NCBI GenBank assembly: GCA_023450615.1
Contig: JAEXGT010000018.1
Span: forward strand, 8,808 to 72,807
Direction of reading: 5' to 3'
DNA from: Pseudomonadota bacterium
Lineage (GTDB): Bacteria > Pseudomonadota > Alphaproteobacteria > Rhizobiales > Beijerinckiaceae
DNA: 64,000 nucleotides
The notes under the pieces were generated by a model. The model had not been told where the DNA came from. It saw only the letters and a program-made list of their open reading frames with translations, and made no database searches. This document shows positions 3,458-60,305 of this stretch, piece after piece; positions within the stretch are counted from its first letter, which is position 1, and each line of letters opens with the position of its first letter. Both the position numbers and the translations under genes were made by a program.

Positions 3458-3501
3458 GAGCGCTTCCTGATGTTATGAGTGTCCGATGTGTGGAAGCGGC
3501 A

Positions 3502-4548: not shown

Positions 4549-4661
4549 CGCTACACTCTTGAAGGCACAACAGAATATCAGCCCAATCATCCCTAAGGGA
4601 CGCTACGTAAATTTTAGTCTTGACTTACCTTGAAGCTGATTTCAACCTACATAAAACAAGA

Positions 4662-4675
4662 TGTAATCGATTACA
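4662..4675. promoter_or_regulatory. Candidate LacI-family operator (perfect 14-bp palindrome TGTAATCGATTACA)
   Basis: Read directly in the lacI / ABC-operon divergent intergenic region, 33 nt upstream of the SBP start codon. It matches the generic LacI-type half-site pattern TGnAAnCG|CGnTTnCA. Confidence 0.55.
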
Positions 4676-4707
4676 CCAAAACTTCACAACGCTTCTGGGA
4701 GGAAGCC

Positions 4708-5943: not shown

Positions 5944-6016
5944 GATACCTTCATTCCAATGCGGTCCGGCGGAGCACTGCTCCCGCCGGACCGGCAAACT
6001 TTGAGGGATATTTCAG

Positions 6017-7836: not shown

Positions 7837-7838
7837 AC

Positions 7839-19849: not shown

Positions 19850-19854
19850 TGTCC

Positions 19855-32974: not shown

Positions 32975-33046
32975 CTGCTTTAAGCTTTTGTTTTGGCGCA
33001 TCTTGTCACGCAAAACCGGTGCCCACTTTTGCGTTCGATGCTCTAG
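32975..33046. repeat. 72-bp intergenic repeat, copy A
   Basis: 69/72 identical to 48314-48385. It fills the gap between the convergent stops at 32970-32972 and 33043-33045. Internal stem ACGCAAAA / TTTTGCGT. Confidence 0.85.
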
Positions 33047-35853
33047 TCGCCTTCGATGATCTCACGGATTCGTACGGCCAGGTCCTCTATGCCGAACGGC
33101 TTCGTGATCATCTCCATGCCCGGATCGAGGAAGCCGGAGGCCATGGCGGCCTGTTCGGCATAACCGGTGATGAAGAGGACCTTGAGATTGGGCCTGATCA
33201 CGCGTGCATAATCTGCAAGCTGCCGGCCATTCAGCCCCGGAAGACCGACATCAGTCACGAGCAGGTCCACCCGCTGCTTCGATTCCAGGATTTTGAGACC
33301 TGATGGGCCATCCACCGCTTCGATGGCTTGATAGCCAAGGTCGGCCAGGACTTCCATGATCAGGGAGCGGACGACGCGCTCGTCCTCCACGACCAGAACT
33401 GTTTCACCAGCCTCCGCCCGATGCATCTCGCCGAGGCCTGTCACGGCGACAGGTTCCGAAGCCTCGCCCTCATGAGCCGGCAGGTAGAGCTTGACGGCTG
33501 TTCCCCTGCCGACCTCGCTGTGAATGCGAACATGCCCCTCCGATTGCTTGGTGAAGCCATACACCATGGAGAGGCCAAGGCCCGTTCCTACGCCGATCGG
33601 CTTGGTCGTGAAGAAGGGGTCGAAGACCTGCGAAAGAACATCGGCAGGCATCCCGGTTCCGGTATCGGAGACGCTGATCGTAACGTAGCGGCCAGGCGCG
33701 ATAGCCTGCTGAGCCGCCGCATAGAGATCGTCCAGGTGAGAAATGCCTGTTTCAACGATGAGCGCGCCGCCATCGGGCATGGCATCTCGCGCATTGATCG
33801 CGAGATTGAGGATGGCGCTTTCCAGCTGATTGGGATCGCACAGGGTCAGCGGCAGTTCTTCAGAAATCGCGAACCCGAGCTCAATGGATTCTGAAATGGT
33901 CCGCCGGAGAAGCTCCTCCATGGACATGACGAGCCGATTGACGTTGACGGGCTTCGGATCGAGAGGCTGGCGCCGCGCAAACGCCAGAAGGCGATGTGTC
34001 AAGGCCGCAGCGCGATTGGCCGAGGACGTGGCAGCCGAAATGTACCGGTCGAGATTATCGAGGCGGCCTTGCGCCATGCGGGTCTTCAGAAGATCGAGCG
34101 AGCCGACGATTCCCGTCAGAAGATTATTGAAGTCGTGCGCAATGCCTCCCGTCAGCTGGCCGACGGCTTCCATCTTTTGGGCCTGCCGCAGCGCCTCTTC
34201 GGTCCGCTTCAGTTCCGTGATGTCGTGTCCTTCCGCCACCAGGAAGATAGGCGTGCCCGTCTCATCCAGAACGGGTTTCATCGAAAAGTCGAAAATGCGG
34301 TTGCCGCCCGGCAGCAGGAGTTCCGACTCGTAGCGCACGAACTCTCCGGCGGCGACGCGCGCGACACTTTCGCGCGCCCGCTGGGCCTCGTCGGGAGAAT
34401 TCACCCACCAGGGAGCATCCCAAATCTTCAACCCCGCAACCTGTCTCTGCGCAGTTCCTGCGGCCTGCAAGGCCGCATTGTTGACGATCACCACGGTGCC
34501 ATCCAGCGCGCTAAGCGCCATCAGCTGGAAAGTGGTGTTGAAGATCGCCCGGAACCGGCGTTCGCTCTCGGCGAGTTCGGCCGTGCGCTCAGCAACACGG
34601 CTTTCGAGCCTTTCGTTGAGCTCCCGCAATCGCTCTTCCGACTGCTTTACCGCCGTAATGTCATAGATGACGCCGATAAATCGCAGGCCCGCTGTTTCGG
34701 TATCACGAACATACTCGCCCCGGCGAGCCAGCCAGCGAAGTTTCTTGTTGTCCGCCCGCTGAATCCGGCATTCGGCGTATGACGCACTTTCAGAAGCTGA
34801 ACCCTGCTCGACGAGAACGGGATCTCCCGGCATGACGAGATTGTTGATCGTGCGGATGGGCAAGACATTGGTCGGGTGAAGCCCAACCAGCCTGCAAAAT
34901 TCCTCCGAGACGCTGACGGTCGCAAAGCCGTCCACATATTCGAACGTTCCGATGCCACCGGCGCTCTGCGCAATCCGCAGCCGCTCCTCGATATGCTTCT
35001 GCTCAGTTACATCGAGGACGACGCCCGTGAAACGGACGGGATGATCCCCATCGCCAAAATGGCTGCGCCCTCGCGCATGGACCCAGCGCACCGAGCCGTC
35101 AGCGGAAAGAAGCCGGTATTCCTTGGAAAAGATTTCCGCTCCGTTGAGGATGCCTGCGACGGCCAAGCGGATTCTCAAGCGGTCTTCGGGATGGATGGCT
35201 TTGAAGAAATCGTCGGCGGGCAGACCTTTCCCGGCGCGGACCGGATCAAGGCCGTGGAGCGCTGCGAACCGCGCATCGGCGGTGAAGCATCCGCGAGGAA
35301 TGTCCCAATCCCAGGATCCGCCCGTTCCGGCAACGGTCAGCGTCTGGCGGAGCCGCTCATTGGTCCGATCGAGCTCCTGCTGGTTCGTCTGCAGAGCGGC
35401 GCGCATCTCCTCGGCCTGATGCGATTGCGTAACATCGACCTGGGTTGAGAGAAGGAAAAGCGGCTCGCCGTTCTCATCGTTGACGGGAGTCACGAAGAGA
35501 TGGTTCCAGAAGCGACTTCCGTCCTTGCGCTGGTTCAGAATTTCAATCGAGACGGCGTTGCCCTCCCGAATTGACTCGTGCAACCGCCGAACGGCTTCCT
35601 GATCGGTTTCCGGCGCCTGGAGGAAATCGCAATTACGCCCGACAGCCTCCTCGACCGAGTATCCCGTCATCCGGCAGAACGCCTCGTTCACGAAGACGAT
35701 CGGGTTATCGGGCAGCCGCGGATTTGTTGCCAGCATCGATAGGCCTGAGCGCTCCAGGGCCGAAAAGATCGGCCCTGCGATGCGGCGCAACTCTTCAAGC
35801 GCGCCCCCAATACTCTTATCAAGCGTATCATATGGGAGCTTTCGGGCCGTCAT
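33043..35853 (-). CDS. Hybrid sensor histidine kinase: LOV-type PAS, 3 PAS/PAC, HisKA, HATPase_c, REC
   Basis: LOV block DNPIVFVNEAFCRMTGYSVEEAVGRNCDFLQ...NQRKDGSRFWN...QVDVT. H-box GGIAHDFNNLLTGI. G-boxes DTGTGM and GLGLSMV. The C-terminal receiver has VLVVEDE...DLLVTDVGLPG...ITKP. Confidence 0.9.
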   Translation of the reverse strand: MTARKLPYDTLDKSIGGALEELRRIAGPIFSALERSGLSMLATNPRLPDNPIVFVNEAFCRMTGYSVEEAVGRNCDFLQAPETDQEAVRRLHESIREGNAVSIEILNQRKDGSRFWNHLFVTPVNDENGEPLFLLSTQVDVTQSHQAEEMRAALQTNQQELDRTNERLRQTLTVAGTGGSWDWDIPRGCFTADARFAALHGLDPVRAGKGLPADDFFKAIHPEDRLRIRLAVAGILNGAEIFSKEYRLLSADGSVRWVHARGRSHFGDGDHPVRFTGVVLDVTEQKHIEERLRIAQSAGGIGTFEYVDGFATVSVSEEFCRLVGLHPTNVLPIRTINNLVMPGDPVLVEQGSASESASYAECRIQRADNKKLRWLARRGEYVRDTETAGLRFIGVIYDITAVKQSEERLRELNERLESRVAERTAELAESERRFRAIFNTTFQLMALSALDGTVVIVNNAALQAAGTAQRQVAGLKIWDAPWWVNSPDEAQRARESVARVAAGEFVRYESELLLPGGNRIFDFSMKPVLDETGTPIFLVAEGHDITELKRTEEALRQAQKMEAVGQLTGGIAHDFNNLLTGIVGSLDLLKTRMAQGRLDNLDRYISAATSSANRAAALTHRLLAFARRQPLDPKPVNVNRLVMSMEELLRRTISESIELGFAISEELPLTLCDPNQLESAILNLAINARDAMPDGGALIVETGISHLDDLYAAAQQAIAPGRYVTISVSDTGTGMPADVLSQVFDPFFTTKPIGVGTGLGLSMVYGFTKQSEGHVRIHSEVGRGTAVKLYLPAHEGEASEPVAVTGLGEMHRAEAGETVLVVEDERVVRSLIMEVLADLGYQAIEAVDGPSGLKILESKQRVDLLVTDVGLPGLNGRQLADYARVIRPNLKVLFITGYAEQAAMASGFLDPGMEMITKPFGIEDLAVRIREIIEGD

Positions 35854-35897
35854 GCCGATAATGACTTCGTTGAGGCGATGCGGACAAGTGGCATAGC

Positions 35898-36539
35898 CTA
35901 GGCCTCGTCTCCGACAACTCGCTGGATGAAGCCCGCAATGAGTTCCTTCAGGGCCGCAAGCGAGGGCAGATCCATGAGCATGGCGATATAGCCCCGGATA
36001 TTCCGGTTGCGGACGGAGAAGTTGATATACAGGAAAAGGACCAAGCCCTCATCCGGGCGGGGCTGCATGAGCCTGAACAACTGAGCCCCGTCGCCGCGAA
36101 CGACTTCCGGCAGGGAGATGTTGAGAGAACGCTTCAACATGTTCGCCATCGTGGCAAGACAACCGTTCAGTATCACGTTGCCCGTTTCGGCCAGGGCCTC
36201 CTGTTCCATCTCGTCAACCTGATCGGGGGGCACCTCATCCCCAATGATGGCGCGGACGAGGTCCAGGCTTATGACTTGAGGCAAGATCAGAAGAGCTTGA
36301 CCGGAAAATGCACCTTCGAACTGCTGCTGAATGGCGACAAGCTCGTCTGTCTCACGTTCTCCGATCAGTCGAACCGCATCCTCCGGGGCCATGATCTCGA
36401 CGGATGGAACGGAGAGAAGCACTTCCTCCCCGATCATCTTGCGCAGGCTCGAAGCTGCCCGGCTGACGCCGATATTGACGAGTTCCGTCAGAGCGTCGCG
36501 TTCGAGTTCGGAAAGAGCGATTTCTCGGGGCATGGACAT
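35898..36539 (-). CDS. CheC-type CheY-P phosphatase
   Basis: Two copies of the CheC active-site pattern [DS]-x3-E-x2-N-x22-P: DALTELVN+22aa+P and EALAETGN+22aa+P (the second starts with E). The ATG overlaps the REC stop (TGATG). Confidence 0.75.
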   Translation of the reverse strand: MSMPREIALSELERDALTELVNIGVSRAASSLRKMIGEEVLLSVPSVEIMAPEDAVRLIGERETDELVAIQQQFEGAFSGQALLILPQVISLDLVRAIIGDEVPPDQVDEMEQEALAETGNVILNGCLATMANMLKRSLNISLPEVVRGDGAQLFRLMQPRPDEGLVLFLYINFSVRNRNIRGYIAMLMDLPSLAALKELIAGFIQRVVGDEA

Positions 36540-36922
36540 CACATCCCGCCTGTCCGCAGGCGCAGCGCCGCTCCCGAGATGAAACCTCGCAACCCCTCTT
36601 CGGTCAGAGGCTTGCTGACGAAGGTGGCATTGACCTCACGCGCCCGGGCGATGACCTCGTCCTGGATATTGGCCGTGATCACGGCAATCGGCATCGCCGG
36701 ATGGCTTGAGCGTATTTCACCTGCAAGCTCGAGGCCGTCCTTCTCAGGCATGTTGAAGTCGATCATCGCCACGTCGACCTTCCTAGTACCGAGAACGTCG
36801 AGCGCCTCCTGGGCGTTGCCTGCCTCGACTTTTTCCCAATCAGGCTGCAGGGCCGCCAGAGCCTTGCCTGCAACGATGCGTGCCAGCTTGCTGTCGTCGA
36901 CGATCAGAACGGTTATCGCCAC
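36539..36922 (-). CDS. Single-domain response regulator (CheY-like receiver)
   Basis: LIVDDS, phospho-acceptor context VAMIDFNMPEKDG, VITAN and SKP. 127 aa. The GTG start has a GGAG RBS. Confidence 0.85.
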   Translation of the reverse strand: MAITVLIVDDSKLARIVAGKALAALQPDWEKVEAGNAQEALDVLGTRKVDVAMIDFNMPEKDGLELAGEIRSSHPAMPIAVITANIQDEVIARAREVNATFVSKPLTEEGLRGFISGAALRLRTGGM

Positions 36923-37055
36923 TCAGGTACTCCACTAGGGATAAATTGCCCGGAAGGACCGGAGCGGAATGAAAGGAAACGCTATCAATCTCTTTTAGAG
37001 TATGCCCGAAGAATGACAACTGTTCAGCCTGCCTGTGCTGTCATGCCACCGGCAC

Positions 37056-37292
37056 TTAGCCGGACAGAACCGGGGCAATCCACGCTCGTAAAAATGGGTC
37101 CGCCGCGGCTCCTTTTAGACCTGGTTTGAAGGCCATCAGAATCTGAAGCACGGCGGCATGAAGGTGTTCGGCTTCCGACAGGTCGACGAGCCGGCTCGCA
37201 TCGGCCTGAAGCCATCGAAGCAAGGGCTCCGCATCTTCGACGCGGCACACCCCTTCAAGAACGATGACCTGTCCCTCCAGACGCACGCTCAT
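37056..37292 (-). CDS. Small (78 aa) STAS-like hypothetical protein translationally coupled to cheA
   Basis: ATGA overlap with the cheA stop. The pattern VIVLEGVCRVEDAEPLLRWL...VDLSEAEHLHAAVLQILMA resembles a short anti-sigma-antagonist (STAS) fold without the phosphorylatable Ser. Confidence 0.45.
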   Translation of the reverse strand: MSVRLEGQVIVLEGVCRVEDAEPLLRWLQADASRLVDLSEAEHLHAAVLQILMAFKPGLKGAAADPFLRAWIAPVLSG

Positions 37293-39259
37293 CCGATCAG
37301 CTCCGGAATATCGAGGATCATGAGAACGCGGCCGTCGCCGAGCAGGGTCGTTCCCATGACGCCAGGCATGCCGGCAAGAATGCCTGACATGGGGCGCATC
37401 AGCACATCCATTCTCTCGGCGAATGCATCCACGGCGATCCCAACCGGCCCGTCATCCAGTGCCATCACCACAACCTTCATGCCCGAATTCGGCTCCGTCT
37501 GGCGCGGAATGTCCAAAAGGTCGGAGAGCCTGACCAGAGGAATCGTCCGGTCGCGCAGGACGAAGGCCTCGGCCTCGCGGACCGGAAGGATGCGAGAGGC
37601 GGGCACAAAGGTCGTCTCGATCACTCCATCGAGAGGAATGCCATAGATTTCATGTCCGACCCTGACAGCCATGATCCTTGCCATGACGATGGTCAGGGGC
37701 AGGGTCAGCCGGATCGTCGTGCCGTGGCCCTGCTCGCTTTGAACGGTGGCCTGCCCGCCTAATCTTTCAATAGCGGAGCGTACGGCATCCATACCGACCC
37801 CCCTGCCCGACAGGTCGGTCACCTCCGAAGCCGTCGAGAATCCCGGCGCGAAGATCAGATTGATGATCTCGGAATCGCTCATCCGCTCGATTTCGTCCGC
37901 CGGGGCGACATTCCGCTCGCGGGCGACACGACGGATGACAGCGGGATCGATACCGCGCCCGTCATCCTGAACCTCGACCTGGACCCGGTCGCCCTCGCGA
38001 CGGGCCCGGAGCGCGACCCTGGTCCTTGCTGGCTTCCCGCTTTCCAGACGAACATCCTCCGGCTCGGCCCCATGGCCGATGGCATTGCGCAGGATGTGAA
38101 GCAAAGGTTCGAACAAGCCTTCGACGACGGACTTGTCCGCCTCGACATCTTCGCCCTCCATGGAAAAATCGACCGCCTTTCCCAGCGAACCCGCGATCTC
38201 GCGCACGACGCGGGGGATGCGCCGGAAGATGTCCCGCATGGGCATCATGCGGACATCCATGACGGCCCTGTGCAGCTCCGCCACGATCCGGTCGATGGCG
38301 AACTGGCTCGCGAGAAGTCCCTGCGACAATTCCTTCTGATCCAGCCGGTCCGTGATCTGCCCCGCCAGATGCGCTAAAGCATTCTTCGCAATAACCATCT
38401 CACCGACGAGATCCGCCAGATGGTCGATGCGCGTAGCATCGATGCGGAGCGACCGGGCATGAGTTCCCCCTGCCGCGTCCACTGTAGTGCTTCCGGCTCC
38501 CACTTCGCTGCGGTCCGTCCTGCGATGGGCGACCTCATGGATCGTGACTTGGTCCGGCACGAAACGGAAGACCGCTTTCACTGCATCGAGCCCTGCGCCG
38601 GAAAGCGCCTCGATCCTGAGATTGCATGCGAAGGGATCAATCTCGGAGCTGGGCGGCCAAGGGTCCCGGCTCGAGAAACGGACCGAGACGAGAGCGGGAA
38701 CGGAGCGCAGGAGAGCAACCGGATCGTCGCCCGCAAAGAAGCAATCGGCCCGTGGTGTGTAGCAGATGGTCACGAGGGAGCTTGCCTGCGCCGCCGCATC
38801 CGGGTTCAGAGCCATCAACTCCTCAACCCAGCCAAGGTCGACCAGCGGCGCGGCGGGAGCGGCAGGTGTCAAACCTTGGTCGACCTGTGACCGCAAGCCT
38901 CGCGCGAGACGGTAGCCTTCCTCGGCCGCGCCTTCCGGCAATTGCCCCGTTCGTTCGATATCGCCGATCCACCGCTCCGCTTGTGCGATGCATTCCAGGA
39001 GCGTGTCGATCACTTCGGCATCGGCCCTCGCCTGCCCCTCCTTGAGAGCGCCCAGCAGATCTTCGGCTGCGTGAAGGGCAAGCCCCATGGGCGCGAAGTC
39101 GAAGAGGCCGACGGAGCCTTTGAGCGTATGCACGGCCCGAAAAGCGCTGTCCATCTGCGCCGCGGTGCCAGGATCGCGCTCAAGCGCCAAAAGGTCATCC
39201 GTGGCCTGCTGGATCAACTCGCGGGCTTCGACGACGAAGTGCTGAAGGAGATCATCCAT
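37289..39259 (-). CDS. cheA: Chemotaxis histidine kinase CheA (P1-P5, no fused receiver)
   Basis: Hpt FRAVHTLKGSVG. HATPase N/G boxes HILRNAIGHG, DDGRGID and GRGVGMDAV. C-terminal CheW-like domain. The ATG at 39259 overlaps the cheR stop by 8 nt. Confidence 0.9.
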   Translation of the reverse strand: MDDLLQHFVVEARELIQQATDDLLALERDPGTAAQMDSAFRAVHTLKGSVGLFDFAPMGLALHAAEDLLGALKEGQARADAEVIDTLLECIAQAERWIGDIERTGQLPEGAAEEGYRLARGLRSQVDQGLTPAAPAAPLVDLGWVEELMALNPDAAAQASSLVTICYTPRADCFFAGDDPVALLRSVPALVSVRFSSRDPWPPSSEIDPFACNLRIEALSGAGLDAVKAVFRFVPDQVTIHEVAHRRTDRSEVGAGSTTVDAAGGTHARSLRIDATRIDHLADLVGEMVIAKNALAHLAGQITDRLDQKELSQGLLASQFAIDRIVAELHRAVMDVRMMPMRDIFRRIPRVVREIAGSLGKAVDFSMEGEDVEADKSVVEGLFEPLLHILRNAIGHGAEPEDVRLESGKPARTRVALRARREGDRVQVEVQDDGRGIDPAVIRRVARERNVAPADEIERMSDSEIINLIFAPGFSTASEVTDLSGRGVGMDAVRSAIERLGGQATVQSEQGHGTTIRLTLPLTIVMARIMAVRVGHEIYGIPLDGVIETTFVPASRILPVREAEAFVLRDRTIPLVRLSDLLDIPRQTEPNSGMKVVVMALDDGPVGIAVDAFAERMDVLMRPMSGILAGMPGVMGTTLLGDGRVLMILDIPELIG

Positions 39260-40109
39260 CTCGGTCGTTCCCCGGGCGCTGATAGACGATCGCATCCTCA
39301 AAACGGCGCAAGTCGAAGCGCTTCGAGATCCGCGTCATCGACTCGGTGTGGCCGAGACAGATGTATCCTTCCGGATTCAGGGCCTTGTAAAGGTTGTTCA
39401 CGGTCACGAGACGCGCGGGATCGTCGAAATAGATCAGGACGTTGCGGCAGAAGATGACGTCGAACCGTCCCTGCGCCGCCACGGATGCCGGATCGATGAG
39501 ATTGGCTGCCGTAAACTTCACCGACTCCCGCAGATCCTGGATCAGTCTGCGGCGTCCGTCCCGAAGCGGCTCGAAATAGCGGTCGATCACATCCTGAGGC
39601 AAACGGGAAAGAGCACGTTCTCCATACCTCCCGTCCTGCGCTTCGAGCAGGACGCGCGTATCGATATCCGAGCCGACAATCTCGATGTGATAGGCATCGA
39701 CAAGGGGCCAATTCTCGAGAAGCCAGATGGCGATGGAGTAAGGCTCTTCTCCCGTGGAGCACGGCACCGACCAGATCCGCACGAGATCCCCCGGCTTCCT
39801 GTTCTGCGCGATACTCGGCAGAAGGGAACGGCTGAGGCAGCGCAGCTGATGCTCCTCACGGTAGAAATAGGTTTCATTGACCGTGAAGAGGTTGATCAGG
39901 TGTTCGATTTCGCCCTCGTTGGACGCGATATGCGCGAAATAGGCAGGGAACGTATACGTTCCGGTCGCCGCCATACGGTCGGCGACCCGCCTCTCGATGT
40001 AGTAACGCTTGCTCTCGCCGAAAATCATTCCCGTATGGCGGTAGAGAAATGCGCAAAGCTGGCGGATCTCATCGACAGTCAGCGCATGCTCCTTCCGCGG
40101 CCTGCTCAT
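39252..40109 (-). CDS. cheR: Chemotaxis protein methyltransferase CheR
   Basis: CheR N-domain followed by the SAM-binding core IWSVPCSTGEEPYSIA and VIFCRNVLIYF. ATGA overlap with cheB. Confidence 0.9.
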   Translation of the reverse strand: MSRPRKEHALTVDEIRQLCAFLYRHTGMIFGESKRYYIERRVADRMAATGTYTFPAYFAHIASNEGEIEHLINLFTVNETYFYREEHQLRCLSRSLLPSIAQNRKPGDLVRIWSVPCSTGEEPYSIAIWLLENWPLVDAYHIEIVGSDIDTRVLLEAQDGRYGERALSRLPQDVIDRYFEPLRDGRRRLIQDLRESVKFTAANLIDPASVAAQGRFDVIFCRNVLIYFDDPARLVTVNNLYKALNPEGYICLGHTESMTRISKRFDLRRFEDAIVYQRPGNDRDG

Positions 40110-41209
40110 GGCGACAGCACCATATCCATGATCCGGTCGGCGATTTGCTCAAGAGGCACGACAATCTCGGCCCCACCGCGTCGAACCAACTCACCGGGCA
40201 TGCCCCAAACAACGGCGGTTTCCTCCGCTTCGGCAATGGTCCGCCCGCCCTCGCGCTTCAAACGCGCCATGGTTTCGGCCCCGTCGCTGCCCATCCCGGT
40301 CATCAATACGCCGATGAGACTTTCCGCTGCGAAGTGCTGCATGGCGCTCTCAACCAGGCGGTCGACGCTCGGGTGCCAACGATGCTCAGGCAAAGATGGC
40401 GCGGCCATCACGACGGGACCATCGGGCCGAGTGCTGATGATGACGTCGGCATCGCCCTTGCCGATATAGACATTGCCGGGTTCGAGCGGCATCGGTTGGA
40501 CGGCTTCCATTACCGTGAGAGCGCACAGCTTATCGAGACGGCGCGCCAGAGGACCGGTGAACGAGCCGGGCATGTGCTGGGCCACAACAATCGGCCAGGG
40601 AAAATCCTCAGGCAACCGGGACAGGAGCGCATCCAGGGCAGGCGGTCCGCCCGTCGATGTGCCGATCAGCACGATGCCATGGGCCGGTGCATTTTTGCGC
40701 CGCCGCCGCACCGGGACAGCGGCCACAGGCAGGCGTGGCACGACAACTCTCGCCGGATTTCTTCCCAAGCCGCTGCGCAGGCGCACTCGCTCAGCCAGCC
40801 TCAGGCTGCGGGGCAGACGCGCCCGTGATGCGGCGCGGACCTTCTCCACCAACTGGGGGCCAAGGGTTTCCATTTCGAGCGAAATCGCGCGGTCGGGCTT
40901 TGCGATGAAATCGACAGCCCCAAGCTCCAGCGCTTCCAGTGTGACGCGTGCGCCCGCATCCGTGAGGGATGAAACCATCACCACTGGACATGGGCGCTCC
41001 AGCATGATGCGGTCGAGACAGGTGAGCCCATCCATCTCGGGCATGTTCACATCGAGAGTGATCACGTCCGGCTTGAAGGCGTGCACCTGCTCCAGCGCCT
41101 CCACGCCGTTGCGAGCGAGAGCGATTTCGAAATCGCCCTCGGCGGTGAAGACACTGCCGATCAGACGTCGCATCAATGGAGAGTCGTCTACGACGAGCAG
41201 CCGGATCAC
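40106..41209 (-). CDS. cheB: Protein-glutamate methylesterase CheB (REC plus methylesterase)
   Basis: LLVVDDSPLMRR...ITLDVNMPEMDG receiver, plus an esterase domain with GTSTGGP and the AQHMP...F block. GTGA overlap with the CheW-domain gene. Confidence 0.9.
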   Translation of the reverse strand: MIRLLVVDDSPLMRRLIGSVFTAEGDFEIALARNGVEALEQVHAFKPDVITLDVNMPEMDGLTCLDRIMLERPCPVVMVSSLTDAGARVTLEALELGAVDFIAKPDRAISLEMETLGPQLVEKVRAASRARLPRSLRLAERVRLRSGLGRNPARVVVPRLPVAAVPVRRRRKNAPAHGIVLIGTSTGGPPALDALLSRLPEDFPWPIVVAQHMPGSFTGPLARRLDKLCALTVMEAVQPMPLEPGNVYIGKGDADVIISTRPDGPVVMAAPSLPEHRWHPSVDRLVESAMQHFAAESLIGVLMTGMGSDGAETMARLKREGGRTIAEAEETAVVWGMPGELVRRGGAEIVVPLEQIADRIMDMVLSP

Positions 41210-42639
41210 GGAGCGGAGCGCTCCGGATGATCTTCGTCCATGGCAGCAAGCAGATCCTTCTCGGCGCGATCCAACAACTCGCGCGGATCGAGCAGGAGGA
41301 TCATGCGTCCCTCGACCTCGATATTGGCGATGCGATCGATGACCTGGCTCCCGTCCGCTGCGAGATCGGGGGTCTGGCGAAGCTGCGCTTGAGAAATTTT
41401 GAGAACCTCCGACACGGTGTCGACGACGAAGCCGGCTTGCAGCTCATCAATCCGGACAACCACGATGCGTTCCCGTCGCCTCTCACCCTGAGCGTCGAGC
41501 TTGAATCGCCGCCGCTGATCGATGACCGGAACGACACGGCCGCGCAGGTTCATCACCCCTTCGATGAAGGCAGGAGCCTTGGGCAGCCGGGTCAGCGCAT
41601 CGGGCACGCGCACGACCTCATCGACCGCCCCGATGGGTAACCCGTATTCTTCACCACCCAGCTGGAAGACGATGAACTGCTCCTCGTCACGGTGCGAAGG
41701 CCCGTCAGCTGTACCCATGTCGTGGTTCTTTTCCGTTTGAGAGGAAATCTGCTCGAGCAGGGCCTGATCGCGGAACAGATGGTCCGGCGACAGGATCGAG
41801 ACCAGCCGCTGCCCCCCATCGAGCCGACAGATTCCCTGGATCTGTGCCTCCGCATCTCCCCGGGTGAGGATCGTCGGAACGGGATCGATCATGTCGGGAG
41901 ATATCCGAAGGATTTCCTTCATGCCGTCGGTCGCAAGACCCACCAGCCCTTCACCGATCCGTATCACGACGACCCGGGCTCTCCTGGCATCGCCAGTCGC
42001 GCGAAGGCCAAGCAACCCCCGTAGGGAAACTAGAGGCACGAGCTTTCCGCGCAGGGGAAGCACGCCGAGCATGACAGCATCGGTCTGCGGAACCGCCGTC
42101 ACATGCTCCGGGAGAGCGACAACCTCATGAACGGAAGGCAATGGCAGGGCAAAATCCTGTCCACCCACGGCAAAGCATACCAGGGCGATCTTGTCCGGGT
42201 CCGCGGCCTGCTCATGGTGCACCCGTGGAGCGGCGATTGACCGGCCAGATGCCCGGCGCGTGAAGCTGCCGAAATCCTTGGCGAGCAGCGCATCCAGATC
42301 AATCATCCGCGCCCGCACGTCATCGTTCTCTGACGATGCAAGCGATGCCACCCTATCCACCGCGAGGCCTACAGGGGAACCGCGGTCGATCACGACGACG
42401 CGGGCATTTCCAGAAGGAAGCCCCTCCCGTCCCAGGAGTTTGTGCAGCGACACAACAGGCATCACCGCGCCCCTGAGATTGGCCACGCCAAGCAGGCTGG
42501 AGGGACCAAGCGGCACTCGGGTAACAGCCGGACGGCGGATCACCTCGGCAACATCGGACGCGGGAAGGGCAAAACGTTCGCCCCCCAATTCAACCGTCAG
42601 GAACGATCGCGCGACGGACGCAGGAGCCGCCTGGGCCAT
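41206..42639 (-). CDS. Triple CheW-domain scaffold protein
   Basis: Three CheW-like units (FLTVELGGERFALP..., LVCFAVGGQDFALP..., FIVFQLGGEEYGLP...), each with an NLRG-type motif. The ATG at 42639 lies 5 nt after the MCP stop. The track extension to 42849 overlaps the MCP. Confidence 0.85.
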   Translation of the reverse strand: MAQAAPASVARSFLTVELGGERFALPASDVAEVIRRPAVTRVPLGPSSLLGVANLRGAVMPVVSLHKLLGREGLPSGNARVVVIDRGSPVGLAVDRVASLASSENDDVRARMIDLDALLAKDFGSFTRRASGRSIAAPRVHHEQAADPDKIALVCFAVGGQDFALPLPSVHEVVALPEHVTAVPQTDAVMLGVLPLRGKLVPLVSLRGLLGLRATGDARRARVVVIRIGEGLVGLATDGMKEILRISPDMIDPVPTILTRGDAEAQIQGICRLDGGQRLVSILSPDHLFRDQALLEQISSQTEKNHDMGTADGPSHRDEEQFIVFQLGGEEYGLPIGAVDEVVRVPDALTRLPKAPAFIEGVMNLRGRVVPVIDQRRRFKLDAQGERRRERIVVVRIDELQAGFVVDTVSEVLKISQAQLRQTPDLAADGSQVIDRIANIEVEGRMILLLDPRELLDRAEKDLLAAMDEDHPERSAP

Positions 42640-42643
42640 CACA

Positions 42644-44590
42644 TTACGACTCCACGATCTGGAGTTCATCCGCCAGGGAGGCGATCTCTTCAATCGCGGC
42701 GGCAAGGTCCTCTGATCCTTGCGCCTGCTGACGCGCCGCGCTTGCCGCTTGTGCGGCGGCCGCTCCGGCCTCTTCGGCGACGGCTGCGATCTGTTGGGTG
42801 CCGAGCCGAACCTCGCGCACGGACGTGAGAATGGTGTCCGAACCGGCAAAAATCGCGCTGTTGCCGCGACGGAGCGCCTCGACGTCAGCCTCCACCGCGT
42901 TGAGCCTCTCGGCAGTCAAGGTATTCTTGGCCACCTCGGCTTCCGCAACGACGGCGCTCTGCTCCAAGTCGCGCCGGACGATGATGATCTGCTCGCGGAT
43001 CTGGCGAATGACGTCCTTGATCCGGTCTGCATTCTCGGATGCATCGCGCGCCAGATTGCGGATATCACTGGAGACGATGGCGAAGCCGCGCCCCGCCTCG
43101 CCTACCCGCGCCGCCTCGATGGAGCCGCTCACGGCCAGCATGTTGGTCTGAACCGCCACGAGGGCGATGCTGTCGACGATCTTCTCGATGCGGCGCCCCG
43201 ACTCGTCCAACCCGCTCATCATGTCGATTACGGCACGGGTTTCCTTGAGCCCGCCCTCGACGCCCCTTGCGAGGCGCATGGTTGCGGAGCGGTTTTCCTG
43301 GAACGCGCCGGCAAGGCTTTCGATGCGCTGGACTGCGGTTTCGGCAACCTCCCGCGACGCGCTGGTAGCCCGCTCGATCTGCTCCATGGCCGCAGTGGTC
43401 TGCTGGGTCGCCGCAGCCTGCATCTGCGCTCCCCGGCTGATCTGATCGACCGCCGTCATGATCTCGCCCGCAGCGCCCGAAAGCTCCTGGATGGCCGCCG
43501 AAAGCTCCTCAGCCGCCGAACCGACCTGCTCGGAACTCGCCGAACCCGCCGTGTCGGACTGCAGATTGTCGGCCAGAACCGCCAGGGCATGTGCGGTCTG
43601 CTGGCTCTGGTCCAGCGCGACGCTCTGCTGCTGGACGGCCCGCTGAGCCTCCGCAGCCGCAGCGGCCTGCTCCTCTGCGGCGCTGGCGACCTGCTCGGCC
43701 CCGCGCTGCGCCTCGCGGATAGCTGCTTCCGCCTCGACGGCGGCAACGAGGATTGTCTGGCTGCCCTCCGCGAGGAGGGTAATGTCAGAGCGGATCTTGT
43801 CCAGGGCGGCAACGATGCCGCGCCCGGATTGCGCCTCGCCCGAAGCGGTTTCCGCAGCAGCCCTGATCCTCTCGGCGACGGAGCGCACTTCGCCCGCGAT
43901 CACCTCTGCCAGGGTTTGAATGTCCTGCGCGCTTTTCTCCGAGCTTCCGGCCAGAGCCCGCACCTCGTCGGCCACGACCGCGAACCCGCGACCGTTCTCG
44001 CCGGCCCGCGCGGCTTCGATTGCCGCGTTGAGAGCCAGAAGGTTGGTCTGGTCGGAGATGTCTCCAACCATGCTGGTGATTTCGCCGATGGTGGTGGCCT
44101 GCTGTTCCAAGAGCGAGATGATCTCGACCATGGCTCTCTGACGGGTAGCGTTCGCCTCGACGGATGCCACCGATGTATCGATTTGAGCAGCAGTCTCGAT
44201 CAGGAGGCTCTGGAGGCTCGCGGTCTTCGTGCGCGCCTCTTCCGCATGCTGCCGCGCGCCCGAGAAAGAAGCGCCGAGGCTCACGATGGCGGAAAGCGAT
44301 TGCTGGGATGCGCCCGCAGCCTCCTCGGCTCCGGCGGCGATCTGTTCCATGGAGCGTCGGAGTTCCTCCGCAGCGGCAGACGCCTCCGCCACTCCGCTCG
44401 CCAATTGCTCTGTCGCCGCGCCGATGCGCTCCGCAGCCTGCTGCTTGCGGGCCCTGACCCGCCCGAGGATCCGGCGCTGGGACGCGCCGCCCCGCACAGG
44501 GGAAGGGGATGCATTCGCAGCAGGCGCTTCATCACCGCCCGAGCGAGGGTTGCCCTTGCCCGGGAGTTCGGACGTCTTGACCAATGCCAT
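42644..44590 (-). CDS. Soluble methyl-accepting chemotaxis protein with two tandem signalling (MA) domains
   Basis: No hydrophobic TM segment. Two hairpin-tip motifs lie 300 aa apart: [32 protein letters not shown] (about aa 183-214) and [32 protein letters not shown] (about aa 483-514). Several EE/EQ methylation-like sites are present. Confidence 0.9.
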
Positions 44591-44873
44591 TGAGGCCCCT
44601 TGGGATTGATGGACGATGTTCGGTCGCCTGCCCTACCGGGAAGCCAAACGGACGGCTTCGTCAGAGCGGGTAAGAGCTGGCTTAACTTTTATAGTTGCCG
44701 ATCCTGTCCGAGCAAGGCGCCGCCTGGATTCTTCCTTGATAAAGACGCCCTTTGGCCCCTCTCCGGCCACTTATCCAAACCCTAGCGCGCCCGCCACATA
44801 GACTATGCAAGGATATAAGCTAGAGTGTACGGGAACCGTGTTGCAGCGGTTTTGCCTTCATGAGGGAAACAAG

Positions 44874-45857
44874 ATGTCCATGAAACTGACCCGTCGCGAT
44901 CTGGCCAAGCTCGGCCTTGGCTTTGGCGCTGCCGCCGCCCTGGGCCGCAATGCCTTTGCACAAGCGCCGGCCTTCTTCCGCATCGGGACTGGCGGTACCG
45001 CAGGAACCTACTACCCGGTCGGCGGCCTGATCGCAAATGCCGTTTCGAATGCGCCGCAGCTCGTTCTGACGGCCCAGGCTTCCAACGGCTCCGTGGCGAA
45101 CGTGAACTCCATCGTCTCCGGCGCTCTCGAGTCCGGCTTCACCCAGGCCGACGTGGCCTACTGGGCCTATACCGGCACCGGCCTCTTCGAGGGCAAGGGC
45201 AAGATGGAGGATCTGCGCCTCGTTGCGAACCTTTATCCCGAGAGCATCCATCTGGTCGCCGCCAAGTCCGCGAACATCAAGTCCGTAAACGACCTGAAGG
45301 GCAAGCGCGTATCCCTTGACGAGCCGGGCTCCGGAACCCTCGTCGATGCCCGCATCATCCTGAACGGCTGGGGCCTCAAGGAAAGCGACGTGAAAGCGGA
45401 TTTCCTGAAGCCGAACCAGGCAGCCGAGCGCATGCGCGACGGCGGCCTCGACGCCTTCTTCTTCGTCGGCGGCTATCCGACGAGCGCGATCACGGAGCTT
45501 GCTGCCACCGGCGGCGGCATCGACATCGTGCCCCTGTCCGGCCCCGAGGCGGACGCCATCCGCAAGCAGTACAGCTTCTTCGCCGCGGACGAGATTCCGG
45601 CAGGCACCTACAAGGATGTCGGCGCCGTGAAGACGCTGGCAGTCGGCGCGCAGTGGGTCACGTCCGCGAAGGTGCCGGACGCTGTCGTCTATGAAGTCGT
45701 GAAGGGCCTCTGGAGCGACAAGACCCGCGCCGCCCTCGATGCTGGTCACGCCAAGGGCAAGCTGATCCGCAAGGAGAACGCTCTGGCCGGTGCCGGCATT
45801 CCGATCCATGCCGGAGCTGAGCGCTTCTACAAGGAAGCCGGCCTCCTCAAAGGCTGA
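44874..45857 (+). CDS. TAXI-family TRAP transporter solute-binding protein
   Basis: Tat-like leader LTRRDLAKLGLGFGAAAALGRNAFA and the family block FFRIGTGGTAGTYYPVGGLIANAV. GAGGGA RBS. Confidence 0.85.
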   Translation: MSMKLTRRDLAKLGLGFGAAAALGRNAFAQAPAFFRIGTGGTAGTYYPVGGLIANAVSNAPQLVLTAQASNGSVANVNSIVSGALESGFTQADVAYWAYTGTGLFEGKGKMEDLRLVANLYPESIHLVAAKSANIKSVNDLKGKRVSLDEPGSGTLVDARIILNGWGLKESDVKADFLKPNQAAERMRDGGLDAFFFVGGYPTSAITELAATGGGIDIVPLSGPEADAIRKQYSFFAADEIPAGTYKDVGAVKTLAVGAQWVTSAKVPDAVVYEVVKGLWSDKTRAALDAGHAKGKLIRKENALAGAGIPIHAGAERFYKEAGLLKG

Positions 45858-45877
45858 TTCCGTCCGTCACCCTAAAA

Positions 45878-45916
45878 CGGCCTCCCGCGTCGTCAGTCGC
45901 GGGAGGCGTCGTTTTG
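45878..45916 (+). terminator. Intercistronic hairpin plus T-tract between the TAXI binding-protein and permease genes
   Basis: GCCTCCCGCG (45880-45889) pairs with CGCGGGAGGC (45898-45907), followed by GTCGTTTTG. Confidence 0.45.
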
Positions 45917-46020
45917 AAAGCGTTTGCTCACCTCATTCAAGGCCGAGCAAACGTCCAAGCCTACCCTGGAAGAGCGGCGGCGCATGAATGCGTAAGCGCT
46001 GCCTGCATATGAGACCCGCC

Positions 46021-48192
46021 ATGTCTACTGTCGACACGTCCGCCCTGATCGAGAACCGCAGCCTCGAGGAAAAATTCGATCCCGAGATGCGCTTCCGCCC
46101 TCTGCTGCCAGGAACGGCGTGGCTCGTGGCCGGCCTTCTGCTGGCGCTCTCGCTCTTTCATTACTACACAGCGGGTTTCGGATTGCTGCGCGAAGCAACG
46201 CATCGCGGCATCCACATGGCCTTCGTCCTTGGCCTGATCTTCCTCGTATTCACCGCCTTCAAGACCGACCAGGACAAGGTCATCCCTTCCAGCCTGTGGC
46301 GGCCGGGGGGCATCTCCATCATCGATTGGCTTTTTGCCATCGCTGTTTCGATCGCGAGCCTGTACGTGCCGTGGATCTTCACCGATCTGGCATTCCGTGT
46401 AGGCAATCCGACTTTGACGGACGTCGCAATGGGAACGACCCTGATCGTTCTCCTGCTCGAAGCCACACGCCGTTCTGTCGGCTGGCCCCTTCCCGTCATC
46501 GCCATCGGCATGATGCTTTATGCCTATTTCGGCCCGTCGATGCCCGGCATTCTACAGCACCCCGGCGCCTCGTGGTCGAACATCGTCAACCATCTCTATC
46601 TGACGAGCCAGGGCATCTACGGCATCGCGCTCGGCGTCGTGGCGACTTATGTCTTCCATTACGTGCTCTTCGGCGTGCTTGCGACCCGCGTCGGCCTCGG
46701 CAAGCTCTTCATCGATCTCGCGACCTGTCTCGCCGGACGCTATGCAGGCGGCCCCGCGAAGGTTTCGATCTTCGGGTCGGCCCTGTTCGGCATGATCTCG
46801 GGTTCGTCCATCGCCAATACGGTGACCGTCGGCTCGCTAACGATCCCGGCCATGATCCGCGTCGGCTACAAGCGCCATTTCGCGGCTGCCGTTGAATCGG
46901 CGGCCTCCACCGGCGGACAGATCACTCCGCCGATCATGGGCGCCGCGGCCTTCCTGATGGTCGAGTTCCTGAACATTTCGTACCAGACGGTCATTCTCGC
47001 GGCCATCGTTCCGGCTTTCATGCATTTCTTCGGCGTCTTCATGCAGGTTCACCTGGAGGCAAAGCGCGCGGGCCTGCGTGGATTGCCCGCCGAGGAGCTT
47101 CCGAACGCCCGCAAGGTGATCCGTGAAGGCTGGCAGACGATCATGCCCCTGGCCGTGCTGCTGATGGTGCTGTTCTCCGGCTTCACACCCTATCTCGCCG
47201 CCTTCTGGGGCATCACGGGCTGCATCGTCGTGGGCGTCAGCCGCAATCCGGTCGTGACGCTCGGCTTCCTGGCGGCCATTGCCATCGCCATCACAACCGG
47301 AATGCTCACGCAGCTCGCCTTCTCGCTGCCGGCTCTTCTGTTCGTCACGGGCTTGATGATCTACGCCTATGTGAAGAGCGACGCAGGCAAGGCGAAGGTG
47401 ATCGACCTCATCGACGCCTTCGTCGTCGGCGCGAAATATGCCATCAGCGTGGGCGCCGCGGCGGCGACGGTCGGCATCATCGTCGGCATCGTGACGCTCA
47501 CCGGTGTGGGCTTCAAGATCTCCTTCATCGTGACCTCGTTCGCCGCGCAAATGGCGCAGACCGTAGGCGATATCCTGCCTGCGGGATTGATGGAAGCGAA
47601 GGCGCTGACCCTGCTCTTCACCCTGGCAATGACGGCAATCGTCTGCATCCTCCTCGGTTGCGGCGTTCCGACGACGGCCAACTACATCATCATGGTCACC
47701 GTCGCCGCCCCTGCCCTGATCCTGCTCGGCGTGCAGCCGATCGTAGCGCACTTCTTCGTGTTCTATTACGGCGTGCTCGCGGATATCACTCCGCCCGTCG
47801 CCCTGGCGGCCTATGCGGGGGCGAGCATGGCGGGCGCCGATCCGTTCAAGACCGGCAACACAGCGTTCCGCCTCGGCCTCGGCAAGGCACTTGTGCCCTT
47901 CGTGTTCGTCTACGGCCCCGCCATGCTGATCGTGACACCCGACTTCACCTGGCCGAGCTTCCTCCTGGTGACCGGAGGCGCGATCGCCGGCATCCTGTGC
48001 CTGTCGGCAGCTTTCGCCGGCTATGCCCTGACGGAGATGCGCGCCTGGGAGCGCTGGCTCATCGGCATCGCCTCTCTGCCGATCATCGCGCCCGACTTTA
48101 AGACCACCTTGATCGGTCTGGCGCTGGCAAGCCCTGTGGCCCTGTCTCAGATCATCAAGGCTCGCACCGGACCAGCGTCGGTCCCGGCCTGA
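46021..48192 (+). CDS. TRAP transporter fused permease (TAXI-type, DctQ/DctM-like fusion)
   Basis: About 720-aa polytopic membrane protein directly downstream of the TAXI SBP. The start is uncertain (ATG at 45988, 46009 or 46021). Confidence 0.85.
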   Translation: MSTVDTSALIENRSLEEKFDPEMRFRPLLPGTAWLVAGLLLALSLFHYYTAGFGLLREATHRGIHMAFVLGLIFLVFTAFKTDQDKVIPSSLWRPGGISIIDWLFAIAVSIASLYVPWIFTDLAFRVGNPTLTDVAMGTTLIVLLLEATRRSVGWPLPVIAIGMMLYAYFGPSMPGILQHPGASWSNIVNHLYLTSQGIYGIALGVVATYVFHYVLFGVLATRVGLGKLFIDLATCLAGRYAGGPAKVSIFGSALFGMISGSSIANTVTVGSLTIPAMIRVGYKRHFAAAVESAASTGGQITPPIMGAAAFLMVEFLNISYQTVILAAIVPAFMHFFGVFMQVHLEAKRAGLRGLPAEELPNARKVIREGWQTIMPLAVLLMVLFSGFTPYLAAFWGITGCIVVGVSRNPVVTLGFLAAIAIAITTGMLTQLAFSLPALLFVTGLMIYAYVKSDAGKAKVIDLIDAFVVGAKYAISVGAAAATVGIIVGIVTLTGVGFKISFIVTSFAAQMAQTVGDILPAGLMEAKALTLLFTLAMTAIVCILLGCGVPTTANYIIMVTVAAPALILLGVQPIVAHFFVFYYGVLADITPPVALAAYAGASMAGADPFKTGNTAFRLGLGKALVPFVFVYGPAMLIVTPDFTWPSFLLVTGGAIAGILCLSAAFAGYALTEMRAWERWLIGIASLPIIAPDFKTTLIGLALASPVALSQIIKARTGPASVPA

Positions 48193-48276: not shown

Positions 48277-48385
48277 GCCTAAAGCAGGGGACGTGGAATC
48301 GAACTCACGTCCACTGCTTTAGGCTTTTGTTTTGGCGCATCTTGTCACACAAAACCGGTGCCCACTTTTGCGCTCGATGCTCTAG
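48277..48385. repeat. Intergenic repeat, copy B, extended form (18-bp split hairpin plus the 72-bp core)
   Basis: GCCTAAAGCAG / CTGCTTTAGGC (48277-87 / 48314-24) with inner GGACGTG / CACGTCC, followed by TTTTGTTTT. The core 48314-48385 is 69/72 identical to 32975-33046. Confidence 0.85.
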
Positions 48386-60220: not shown

Positions 60221-60305
60221 GCGGTCATGGCGGAATTGGTAGACGCACTACCTTGAGGTGGTAGCGGGGAGACCCGTGGAGGTTCGAGTCCTCTTGACCG
60301 CACCA
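60221..60305 (+). tRNA. tRNA-Leu (anticodon GAG), class II with long variable arm, CCA encoded
   Basis: Acceptor GCGGTCA/TGACCGC. Anticodon stem CTACC/GGTAG with loop TTGAGGT. Variable arm CGGGGAGACCCGT. T-arm GGAGG-TTCGAGT-CCTCT. 3' ACCA. Confidence 0.9.

Follow-up and report, generated by a model that had tools for sequence, protein, structure and literature searches.

We analyzed a run of nine chemosensory and signaling genes in the middle of a 64-kb window, by which we mean the whole stretch of 64,000 nucleotides taken from contig JAEXGT010000018.1 (positions 8,808 to 72,807; assembly GCA_023450615.1, Beijerinckiaceae). Judged by its gene content and gene order, the locus is the Microvirga copy of a catalogued cytoplasmic chemosensory cluster of class F9, a system of the same kind as Vibrio cholerae cluster I and Rhodospirillum centenum Che2. 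A comparison with related loci further showed, at the level of conserved gene order, that a PAS-domain hybrid histidine kinase is the ninth conserved member of this cluster in the alphaproteobacterial branch. The model that we favor, and consider likely, is that of an F9 array with an accessory kinase, both acting on a stand-alone CheY-like receiver. In cluster order, the nine genes and their products are as follows.

42644..44590, minus strand: dosM, soluble methyl-accepting chemotaxis protein (MCP) with two tandem signaling domains, 648 aa (Pfam MCPsignal, two stretches, E = 7.6e-48)
41206..42639, minus strand: cheW3, triple-CheW scaffold, 477 aa, ATG at 42639 (Pfam, three CheW stretches, E = 1.3e-91)
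40106..41209, minus strand: cheB, receiver (REC) plus methylesterase, 367 aa (Pfam; NCBIfam CheB subfamily, 370.8 bits, above the cut-off of 293)
39252..40109, minus strand: cheR, methyltransferase, 285 aa (Pfam CheR_N and CheR)
37289..39259, minus strand: cheA, P1(Hpt)-P3-P4-P5, without a receiver, 656 aa (Pfam Hpt, H-kinase_dim, HATPase_c, and CheW)
37056..37292, minus strand: orf78, predicted miniature STAS-fold protein, 78 aa (predicted structure; Foldseek)
36539..36922, minus strand: cheY-like stand-alone receiver, 127 aa (Pfam Response_reg, E = 1.6e-20)
35898..36539, minus strand: predicted CheY-P phosphatase of the cheC/cheX family (cheX in what follows), 213 aa (Pfam CheX and CheC, above cut-off)
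33043..35853, minus strand: hybrid histidine kinase, LOV-type PAS-PAS-PAS-HisKA-HATPase_c-REC, 936 aa (Pfam PAS_9/PAS_3/PAS_4-HisKA-HATPase_c-REC)

A Microvirga F9 cluster by gene content and order

The original prediction, made from the letters of this DNA, had described a co-directional run of nine minus-strand genes. A re-check of the open reading frames (ORFs) found all nine at the coordinates listed above, and an independent gene call on an identical 116-kb metagenome contig (ENA ERZ24911325 NODE_50) gave the same nine products and backed the start of cheA. Reading the sequence anew confirmed the gene junctions quoted in that prediction. The dosM/cheW3 junction (42644 / 42639) reads TAA-TGTG-ATG, with 4 intervening nucleotides; cheW3/cheB share GTGA (41206-41209), cheB/cheR share ATGA (40106-40109), cheR/cheA overlap by 8 nt (39252-39259), and cheA/orf78 share ATGA (37289-37292). 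After a spacing of 133 nt, the receiver gene follows, which overlaps cheX in TGATG at 36539, and the kinase gene lies 44 nt beyond cheX.

The array proteins have the features of a cytoplasmic system. DosM has a maximal 19-residue Kyte-Doolittle hydropathy of 1.45, which indicates a soluble protein with no transmembrane segment, and it carries two receptor-tip motifs, near residues 192 and 492, and no sensor domain. CheW3 is 100% identical to a 477-aa database protein, its closest named relatives being those of M. guangxiensis and M. vignae (83-84%). The predicted phospho-His of CheA is H44, in the sequence HTLKG, and the Pfam domain scan revealed no fused receiver. In these respects, the proposed Che operon with cytoplasmic array proteins devoid of a sensor domain and with a receiver-less CheA was correctly recognized from the sequence.

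The assignment to a class was not. According to the literature, only the F9 class has the DosM and CheW3 architectures. Here we found both, a cytoplasmic MCP with two tandem signaling domains and no sensor domain and a single protein with three concatenated CheW domains, together with cheA, cheY, cheB, and cheR in one cluster that is syntenic with published F9 clusters. A published table (PMC9321776, S6 Table) gives [DosM W3 B R A. Y X] as the order of F9 clusters in Microvirga ossetica, Methylobacterium terrae, Nitrospirillum amazonense, Novosphingobium, Sphingobium, and Sphingomonas. This order corresponds exactly to the first eight genes of our cluster, orf78 being the "." of the published order, and the N. 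amazonense locus in our own comparison (L072) matches the window cluster gene for gene. Because the locus has DosM and CheW3 and a gene order already on record for F9, we assign it to F9 and not to the alternative cellular function (ACF) class, which is distinct from the F classes and lacks the F9 signature parts. The ACF-type label of the original prediction therefore fails, on grounds that the prediction had itself named as counting against it, F9 being a class of the F series. The double-signaling-domain MCP and the triple CheW, which it had called non-canonical, are in fact the published F9 signature, and the combination that it had taken to be uncharacterized was already listed. M. ossetica has a separate ACF system beside its F9 cluster (PMC9321776, S6 Table). 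The F9 class is "flagellar" by name only; 97% of F9-bearing species have flagellar genes, and F9 almost always occurs alongside another F class in the same genome.

V. cholerae cluster I (DosM VC1403, CheW3 VC1402, and CheA VC1397) shares with the window cluster a soluble, sensor-less MCP with a double signaling domain, a triple CheW, a receiver-less CheA, CheB, CheR, CheY, and a small gene after cheA. Its order is DosM-W3-B-.-R-Y-A-.-Y-M. The window cluster lacks the small gene between cheB and cheR as well as the cheY between cheR and cheA, and it ends in CheC/X and the hybrid kinase, whereas cluster I ends in an MCP. In V. cholerae, two baseplates formed of CheA VC1397 and the triple CheW VC1402 enclose a cytoplasmic receptor layer stapled by DosM VC1403. 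These arrays appear at low oxygen or starvation, and deletion of the F9 cheA produced no detectable phenotype under standard conditions (PMC7534058).

R. centenum Che2, also listed as F9, has a tripartite CheW and two small uncharacterized proteins. Its order, DosM-W3-B-.-R-Y-A, has no Y-X tail listed, whereas the window cluster has one; its CheA is reported as receiver-fused, unlike the window CheA, and no associated PAS kinase is reported. Che2 mutants form hyper-flagellated or nonflagellated cells, yet they are chemotactic. We also considered che3 of B. diazoefficiens as an experimental relative; the paper does not allow a class to be assigned to it, cheY is reportedly lacking, and it was not used.

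A PAS hybrid kinase accompanies the cluster in alphaproteobacteria

The original prediction had counted the hybrid kinase as a member of the operon and had proposed a survey of gene order in related genomes. We conducted this survey on 80 loci from species-representative genomes, onto which the nine window proteins were mapped by tblastn. The loci are those of the nearest relatives of the window CheW3 (at least 41% identity), all from alphaproteobacteria; a further 152 matches lie beyond them. They cover about 29 Microvirga species and, among other genera, Sphingomonas, Geminicoccus, Hyphomicrobium, Aureimonas, Beijerinckia, Aliidongia, Nitrospirillum, Rhodopseudomonas, Bradyrhizobium, and Pseudolabrys, with further loci from several Acetobacteraceae and other Xanthobacteraceae, amounting to at least eight families in all. 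DosM orthologs, 49-89% identical to the window protein, lie upstream of CheW3 in the 80 loci.

A same-strand PAS hybrid histidine kinase was found after cheX in every one of the 68 loci that extend at least 2 kb past this gene. The kinase starts within 1.3 kb of cheX in 67 of them, and in the 68th (L031) it overlaps cheX by 11 nt; the gaps are mostly between −37 and +60 nt. The linkage is kept under both core orders that we encountered, B-R-A-.-Y-X and B-.-R-Y-A-.-Y-X, and despite local duplications, which gave Y-X-Y-X-HK in L066 (HK, histidine kinase) and Y-X-HK-X in L032. The hybrid kinase thus does belong with the operon, as the original prediction had it.

The duplicated receiver-CheX pair of the former locus lies at L066:15677-20587 and the second CheX past the kinase of the latter at L032:10610-15096. 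In three loci of Xanthobacteraceae and Bradyrhizobium (L065, L069, and L077), CheX stands in divergent orientation upstream of dosM.

In the searchable literature, of which our search was not exhaustive, we found no description of the kinase as a part of F9. Three elements go beyond the published table, which covers che genes only and stops at X (PMC9321776): the kinase after X, the predicted STAS fold of the "." gene, and two promoter-like blocks described below.

Catalytic core and receiver of the kinase

Conservation of the kinase extends from its last PAS domain through the transmitter to the receiver. Among 70 kinases compared, all 70 keep the phospho-His (H573 in the HisKA domain of the window kinase), the N-box Asn (N687), the G1 Asp (D730), and the receiver residues D824, D868, T/S896, and K918, which shows a kinase that, as judged from these residues, should be catalytically competent. 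The N-terminal sensor region varies among the orthologs, which occur in three sizes of about 660, 780, and 920-940 aa and carry LOV-PAS-PAS, PAS-PAS, or a single PAS.

The receiver motif [FL]x[TS]GY is likewise present in 70 of 70 kinases and reads LFITGY in the window protein, whose receiver Asp is D868. This corresponds to the FATGUY motif (F-x-[ST]-G-Y at β4), which marks intermediary receivers such as CckA-Rec, MrrA, and SdrG (PMC9981736), and it places the C-terminal receiver among those of the CckA type. With CckA the window kinase shares a HisKA core with an HDFNNLL motif and the C-terminal receiver with F-x-T-G-Y; unlike CckA, it has no transmembrane segments and no adjoining ChpT. The nearest NCBIfam models to the kinase core were PRK13557 (564 bits) and a CckA-like model (375 bits), both below cut-off. 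The kinase is not a CckA ortholog (375 bits compared with a cut-off of 1000), and it scores well below the equivalog cut-offs of both CckA and LOV-HK.

We also compared across clades helix 1 of the dimerization and histidine phosphotransfer domain, helix 1 of the kinase receiver, and helix 1 of the stand-alone receiver. The differences follow phylogeny and therefore do not identify a phosphotransfer partner.

The LOV-type PAS domain

35419..35766, minus strand: LOV-type PAS domain of the kinase, aa ~30-145 (PDB match; alignment with 30 orthologs)

The system had been proposed to be linked to light, and the first PAS domain of the kinase is indeed of the LOV type. Its best PDB match is the Brucella LOV-HK (6ph4, E = 4.6e-31), and the LOV domains of phototropin and aureochrome matched at about 1e-30, a LOV-level similarity on a PAS fold. 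The adduct cysteine of the motif GxNCRFLQ is present as Cys75, in GRNCDFLQ. In LOV domains, the Arg of NCRFLQ and a second basic residue clamp the phosphate of flavin mononucleotide (R451 and R467 in AsLOV2 numbering), and we take D76 and H92 of the window kinase to be the positions of these two contacts. The two expected basic residues are not found there: Asp-76 replaces the motif Arg, and position 92 is a His, compared with Arg in most relatives and Lys in the Brucella LOV-HK. Because the window LOV sequence is identical in two separate assemblies, these changes are real and not an assembly error.

Most long-form Microvirga orthologs have the canonical NCRFLQ. M. guangxiensis, the closest relative, has lost the cysteine, as have M. 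aerophila, Geminicoccus, Nitrospirillum, and others, and the LOV domain is wholly absent from the short and medium kinase forms. The closest full-length orthologs of the kinase, those of M. guangxiensis (L001:16792-19602, NGSFLQ) and M. aerophila (L026, NGRFMQ), are thus among those without the cysteine; they retain the remaining LOV domain and all kinase residues. Together with the NCDFLQ of the window, it looks as if LOV photochemistry is decaying or being repurposed in part of the genus. Light sensing would then be a lineage-specific option of the kinase. It is doubtful in this genome, because the cysteine is lost in relatives, the domain is absent in short forms, and the window protein itself has NCDFLQ and His-92. 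Of the proposed link to light, a LOV-type domain with Cys75 is what stands; the changes at D76 and H92 and the orthologs without cysteine or domain speak against the remainder.

The STAS-fold protein, the stand-alone receiver, and the phosphatase

The AlphaFold2 model of orf78 has a pLDDT of 94.4. Its top Foldseek matches in the PDB are anti-sigma antagonists, RsbV, SpoIIAA, and MlaB (E 6e-4 to 1e-2, TMq 0.5-0.63), and almost all of the top 30 are STAS proteins (best E = 6.4e-4), so the modeled structure points to a STAS fold. The domain is short, 78 aa compared with about 110 aa for STAS. No Pfam match was obtained at E ≤ 0.01, STAS_2 reaching 13.7-16.4 bits, below its cut-off of 29.2. In a hand alignment, the start of helix 2, which reads DSSG in canonical STAS domains, is E-H-L-H-A-A-V and has no phosphorylatable Ser or Thr; an Ala adjoining a conserved Leu-His takes the usual phospho-Ser position. 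The Pfam scan of the cluster also revealed no anti-sigma kinase. The earlier description of this ORF as STAS-like is thus supported for the predicted fold and not for a partner-switching module.

The orf78 family sits after cheA in both gene-order variants, in 69 of the 80 loci, which is wherever the contig reaches; L049 gave no match. Its conserved residues are C16, LH44-45, Q50, and W71. At 78 aa, the window protein is shorter than most of the other Microvirga homologs listed, which have 89 aa (P0122 and others; 80-100 aa overall). The difference is a nonconserved C-terminal tail, and the stop codon of the relatives lies directly before the promoter-like block P2.

The stand-alone receiver retains the DD pair, the acceptor Asp, the T, an aromatic residue at K-3, and the K, and with 56-92% identity it is among the most conserved cluster proteins across loci. 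The phosphatase scored above the cut-offs of both Pfam CheX (47.8 bits, cut-off 27) and Pfam CheC (33.6 bits, cut-off 22), its best NCBIfam match being CheC. It has two active-site motifs of the CheC/CheX/FliY family ([D/S]-x3-E-x2-N-x22-P), D15-x3-E-x2-N-x22-P and E114-x3-E-x2-N-x22-P. Because of these two sites, we consider the protein CheC-like and not of the single-site CheX type, in agreement with the CheC-type phosphatase originally proposed.

Putative promoters and transcription units

44686..44716, minus strand: P1, CTTGCT-N17-TATAAA, ~95 nt upstream of dosM (cross-species alignment; putative promoter)
36990..37020, minus strand: P2, TTGTCA-N16-TAAAAG, in the gap between orf78 and the receiver gene (cross-species alignment; putative promoter)
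36947..36963, minus strand: short palindrome TCCGGTCCTTCCGGGCA in the putative 5' leader of the receiver gene (conserved in the Microvirga alignment)

Both blocks, P1 and P2, emerged only from cross-species alignment. In 16 Microvirga regions upstream of dosM, the CTTG and CTATAA of P1 are invariant in otherwise poorly conserved DNA. P2 is almost unchanged in 15 of the 16 Microvirga sequences aligned, the surrounding intergenic DNA having diverged, and L047 lacks most of it. The ends of both blocks have CT[AC]TAAAAG in common. No comparable conserved block was seen before the kinase gene in the Microvirga alignment. Generic sigma-70 and terminator scans of the region from 32.5 to 45.2 kb gave counts equal to those of shuffled controls and did not detect P1. 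As two conserved promoter-like blocks imply two units, the alignment suggests that dosM to orf78 and cheY-cheX-HK may be separate transcription units, expressed from two similar promoters. The internal promoter that had been thought possible in the 133-bp gap is therefore plausible, with P2 as the candidate.

An EcfG-type general-stress promoter (GGAAC-N15-18-CGTT) was considered and rejected: it matched twice in the window, in neither case near the cluster and no more often than by chance. An Rfam scan of the whole window gave no match in the cluster, including the palindrome TCCGGTCCTTCCGGGCA. Its sole match in the window was a tRNA (60221-60302, plus strand).

The CheX-kinase pair within Microvirga

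Within Microvirga, the sequence identities of the proteins from DosM through the receiver co-vary (r = 0.63-0.95). Those of CheX and the kinase are correlated with one another (r = 0.85) and do not track the remaining cluster proteins. We considered this pattern as a sign that CheX acts on the kinase, a reading that the core-gene trees weakened: they attribute the pattern to one nested clade, which has exchanged CheX and the long kinase jointly for a divergent CheX and a kinase of 664 aa. Because it is traced to a single replacement event, the co-variation is weak evidence for a partnership.

The clade comprises L003, L005, L007, L008, L009, L011, L013, L017, L018, and L024. Its CheX is 58-59% identical to the window CheX, compared with 78-93% in other Microvirga (L047 being an outlier), and its kinase is short (about 664-675 aa) and has no LOV domain. 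The remainder of the cluster is as similar to that of the window as in other species.

Genomic surroundings

The flanks of the cluster are unrelated to it. On one side lie a divergent TAXI-type tripartite ATP-independent periplasmic (TRAP) transporter and an RTX protein, and on the other a convergent FAD oxidoreductase, an AMP-binding enzyme, and an ABC transporter. None of the 30 other large ORFs of the window that we scanned encodes a flagellar, motor, or further MCP protein, all being metabolic, transport, or regulator genes, and the small ORFs were covered only in part. Within this scope, the original observation that the window has no flagellar or motor genes holds.

The TRAP pair (44805-48192, plus strand) consists of an NMT1_3 solute-binding protein and a 734-aa DctM-type permease. 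It is divergent from dosM, and the common 214-bp intergenic region contains P1. Near the chemosensory cluster lies an RTX protein of 561 aa with nine RTX repeat stretches (48382-50067, minus strand). A second one, of 1677 aa (12500-17533, plus strand), has NosD/β-helix, cadherin, and RTX calcium-binding repeats and is likely a secreted adhesin. The regions 17640-22403 (minus strand) and 1850-8918 hold a run of FAD-dependent oxidoreductases (DAO, and Pyr_redox_2 with a BFD-like 2Fe-2S and sarcosine-oxidase A3 domain), a GH43 xylosidase, a LacI regulator, and an ABC sugar-uptake cluster, all of them ordinary metabolic neighbors.

Proposed mechanism and alternative explanations

By homology with the V. 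cholerae arrays seen in cryo-electron tomography, DosM, CheW3, and CheA would build a membrane-free, two-layered cytoplasmic array that CheR and CheB would adapt by methylation. CheA-P would hand its phosphate to the stand-alone CheY-like receiver, and the two-site CheC/X phosphatase would reset this receiver, as homologous systems suggest. As many as 98% of DosM homologs have no sensor domain, and input is therefore expected from outside. Because the kinase is linked to the cluster and DosM has no sensor, the kinase may bring a second, cytoplasmic PAS-sensed input (redox, light, or metabolite, depending on the lineage) to the same phosphorylation node. It could do so either by direct phosphorylation of the CheY-like receiver or by phosphate exchange with CheA through its own FATGUY receiver.

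Cross-talk between such a kinase and CheA would have a precedent in CheS3 of R. centenum Che3, with which the original prediction had compared the system. As in our cluster, that Che pathway includes a second histidine kinase and a single-domain CheY. There, CheA phosphorylates a receiver of the second kinase, and only the second kinase phosphorylates CheY. The analogy holds as a precedent for a kinase in a Che pathway and is otherwise loose. Che3 is an ACF system without DosM, CheW3, or CheC/X, and its CheA3 is a CheA-REC hybrid and CheS3 has N-terminal receivers, neither of which is found here; unlike that of CheS3, the receiver of the window kinase is C-terminal and of the FATGUY type. By analogy, CheS3 may still be useful as a working model of how phosphate flows. 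The output is probably one of regulation and not of chemotactic steering, because R. centenum Che2 affects flagellar biosynthesis and the V. cholerae expression is stress-linked.

Several points weigh against this interpretation. The F9 assignment is based on signature architectures and synteny, not on class HMMs. Two-layered, membrane-free F9 arrays are known only from V. cholerae (PMC7534058). The rule that a kinase follows cheX is drawn from alphaproteobacterial relatives only, V. cholerae-type clusters ending in an MCP and not in X-HK, and the conserved adjacency could reflect co-regulation only. The phosphotransfer steps are proposed from homology and linkage alone. The kinase has a receiver of its own and could signal to a partner encoded elsewhere, and the evidence for a CheX-kinase partnership (r = 0.85) is weak, as it comes from a single event in one clade.

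A more specific proposal, which we regard as possible though on the unlikely side, is that of a CckA-like PAS/LOV kinase dedicated to the sensor-less array. Its FATGUY receiver would exchange phosphate with the P1 domain of CheA, the array would serve as a phosphorelay hub where the kinase signal and receptor methylation are combined, and this branch would be the target of CheC/X. If true, this would supply F9 with its missing input and with a function open to experiment.

The kinase may instead be an independent two-component gene that accompanies F9 through common regulation or synteny, with no phosphate passing between it and CheA or the CheY-like receiver. It has a complete transmitter and its own receiver, and the normal recipient of phosphate from FATGUY receivers is a separate Hpt/ChpT-type protein, whose gene could lie elsewhere; moreover, its gene is separated from cheX by a 44-nt gap without overlap, and the sole within-genus signal of a module is one recombination event. 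Against this, adjacency in 68 of 68 loci from at least eight families, kept under two core orders and local duplications, is a conservation unusual at such distances for functionally unrelated neighbors, and of the conserved promoter-like blocks the only one to separate the kinase from the array genes is that upstream of cheY, not one upstream of the kinase. We therefore judge an independent kinase to be unlikely.

We find it improbable that the cluster is an ACF-type, non-motility, light-driven Che pathway of new composition, in which the LOV kinase would be a photoreceptor coupled to CheA in the manner of CheS3. The clear LOV type of the first PAS domain, with its adduct cysteine, would fit such a pathway, as would the CheS3 precedent and a CheA with no obvious motor link in a window without flagellar genes among the large ORFs scanned. 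"Non-motility" may even hold in function, as the V. cholerae F9 cheA deletion had no chemotaxis phenotype. The F9 signature of DosM and CheW3 and an order already catalogued as F9 in Microvirga argue against it, as do the orthologs without the LOV cysteine (M. guangxiensis, M. aerophila, Geminicoccus, and Nitrospirillum) or without the domain, the Asp and His at the two phosphate contacts here, and the lack of the N-terminal receivers of CheS3 and the CheA-REC hybrid of CheA3.

Conventional flagellar chemotaxis, with CheY-P binding the motor, CheC/X ending the signal, and an incidental kinase, is very improbable: although the "F" label, the flagellar genes of 97% of F9-bearing species, the flagellation phenotypes of R. 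centenum Che2 mutants, and the CheY-type T and aromatic switch residues of the receiver would favor it, the V. cholerae F9 cheA deletion had no detectable phenotype under standard conditions, the Che2 mutants are still chemotactic, and for motility M. ossetica has a further system, of class F5.

Implications

For this window alone, the result is mostly corrective, in that the parts first taken as non-canonical are textbook F9. The value of the locus lies in the conserved kinase as a handle on F9 function, and not in those parts. F9 is structurally striking for its two-layered cytoplasmic arrays, and reviews call its physiological role still undiscovered. A catalytically intact PAS hybrid kinase with interchangeable sensors beside cheY-cheX in the alphaproteobacterial F9 branch studied here provides a concrete hypothesis for where the signal may enter or leave the F9 system, and the natural kinase variants, with a LOV domain that has the cysteine, a LOV domain without it, or short forms without LOV, offer material for testing it.

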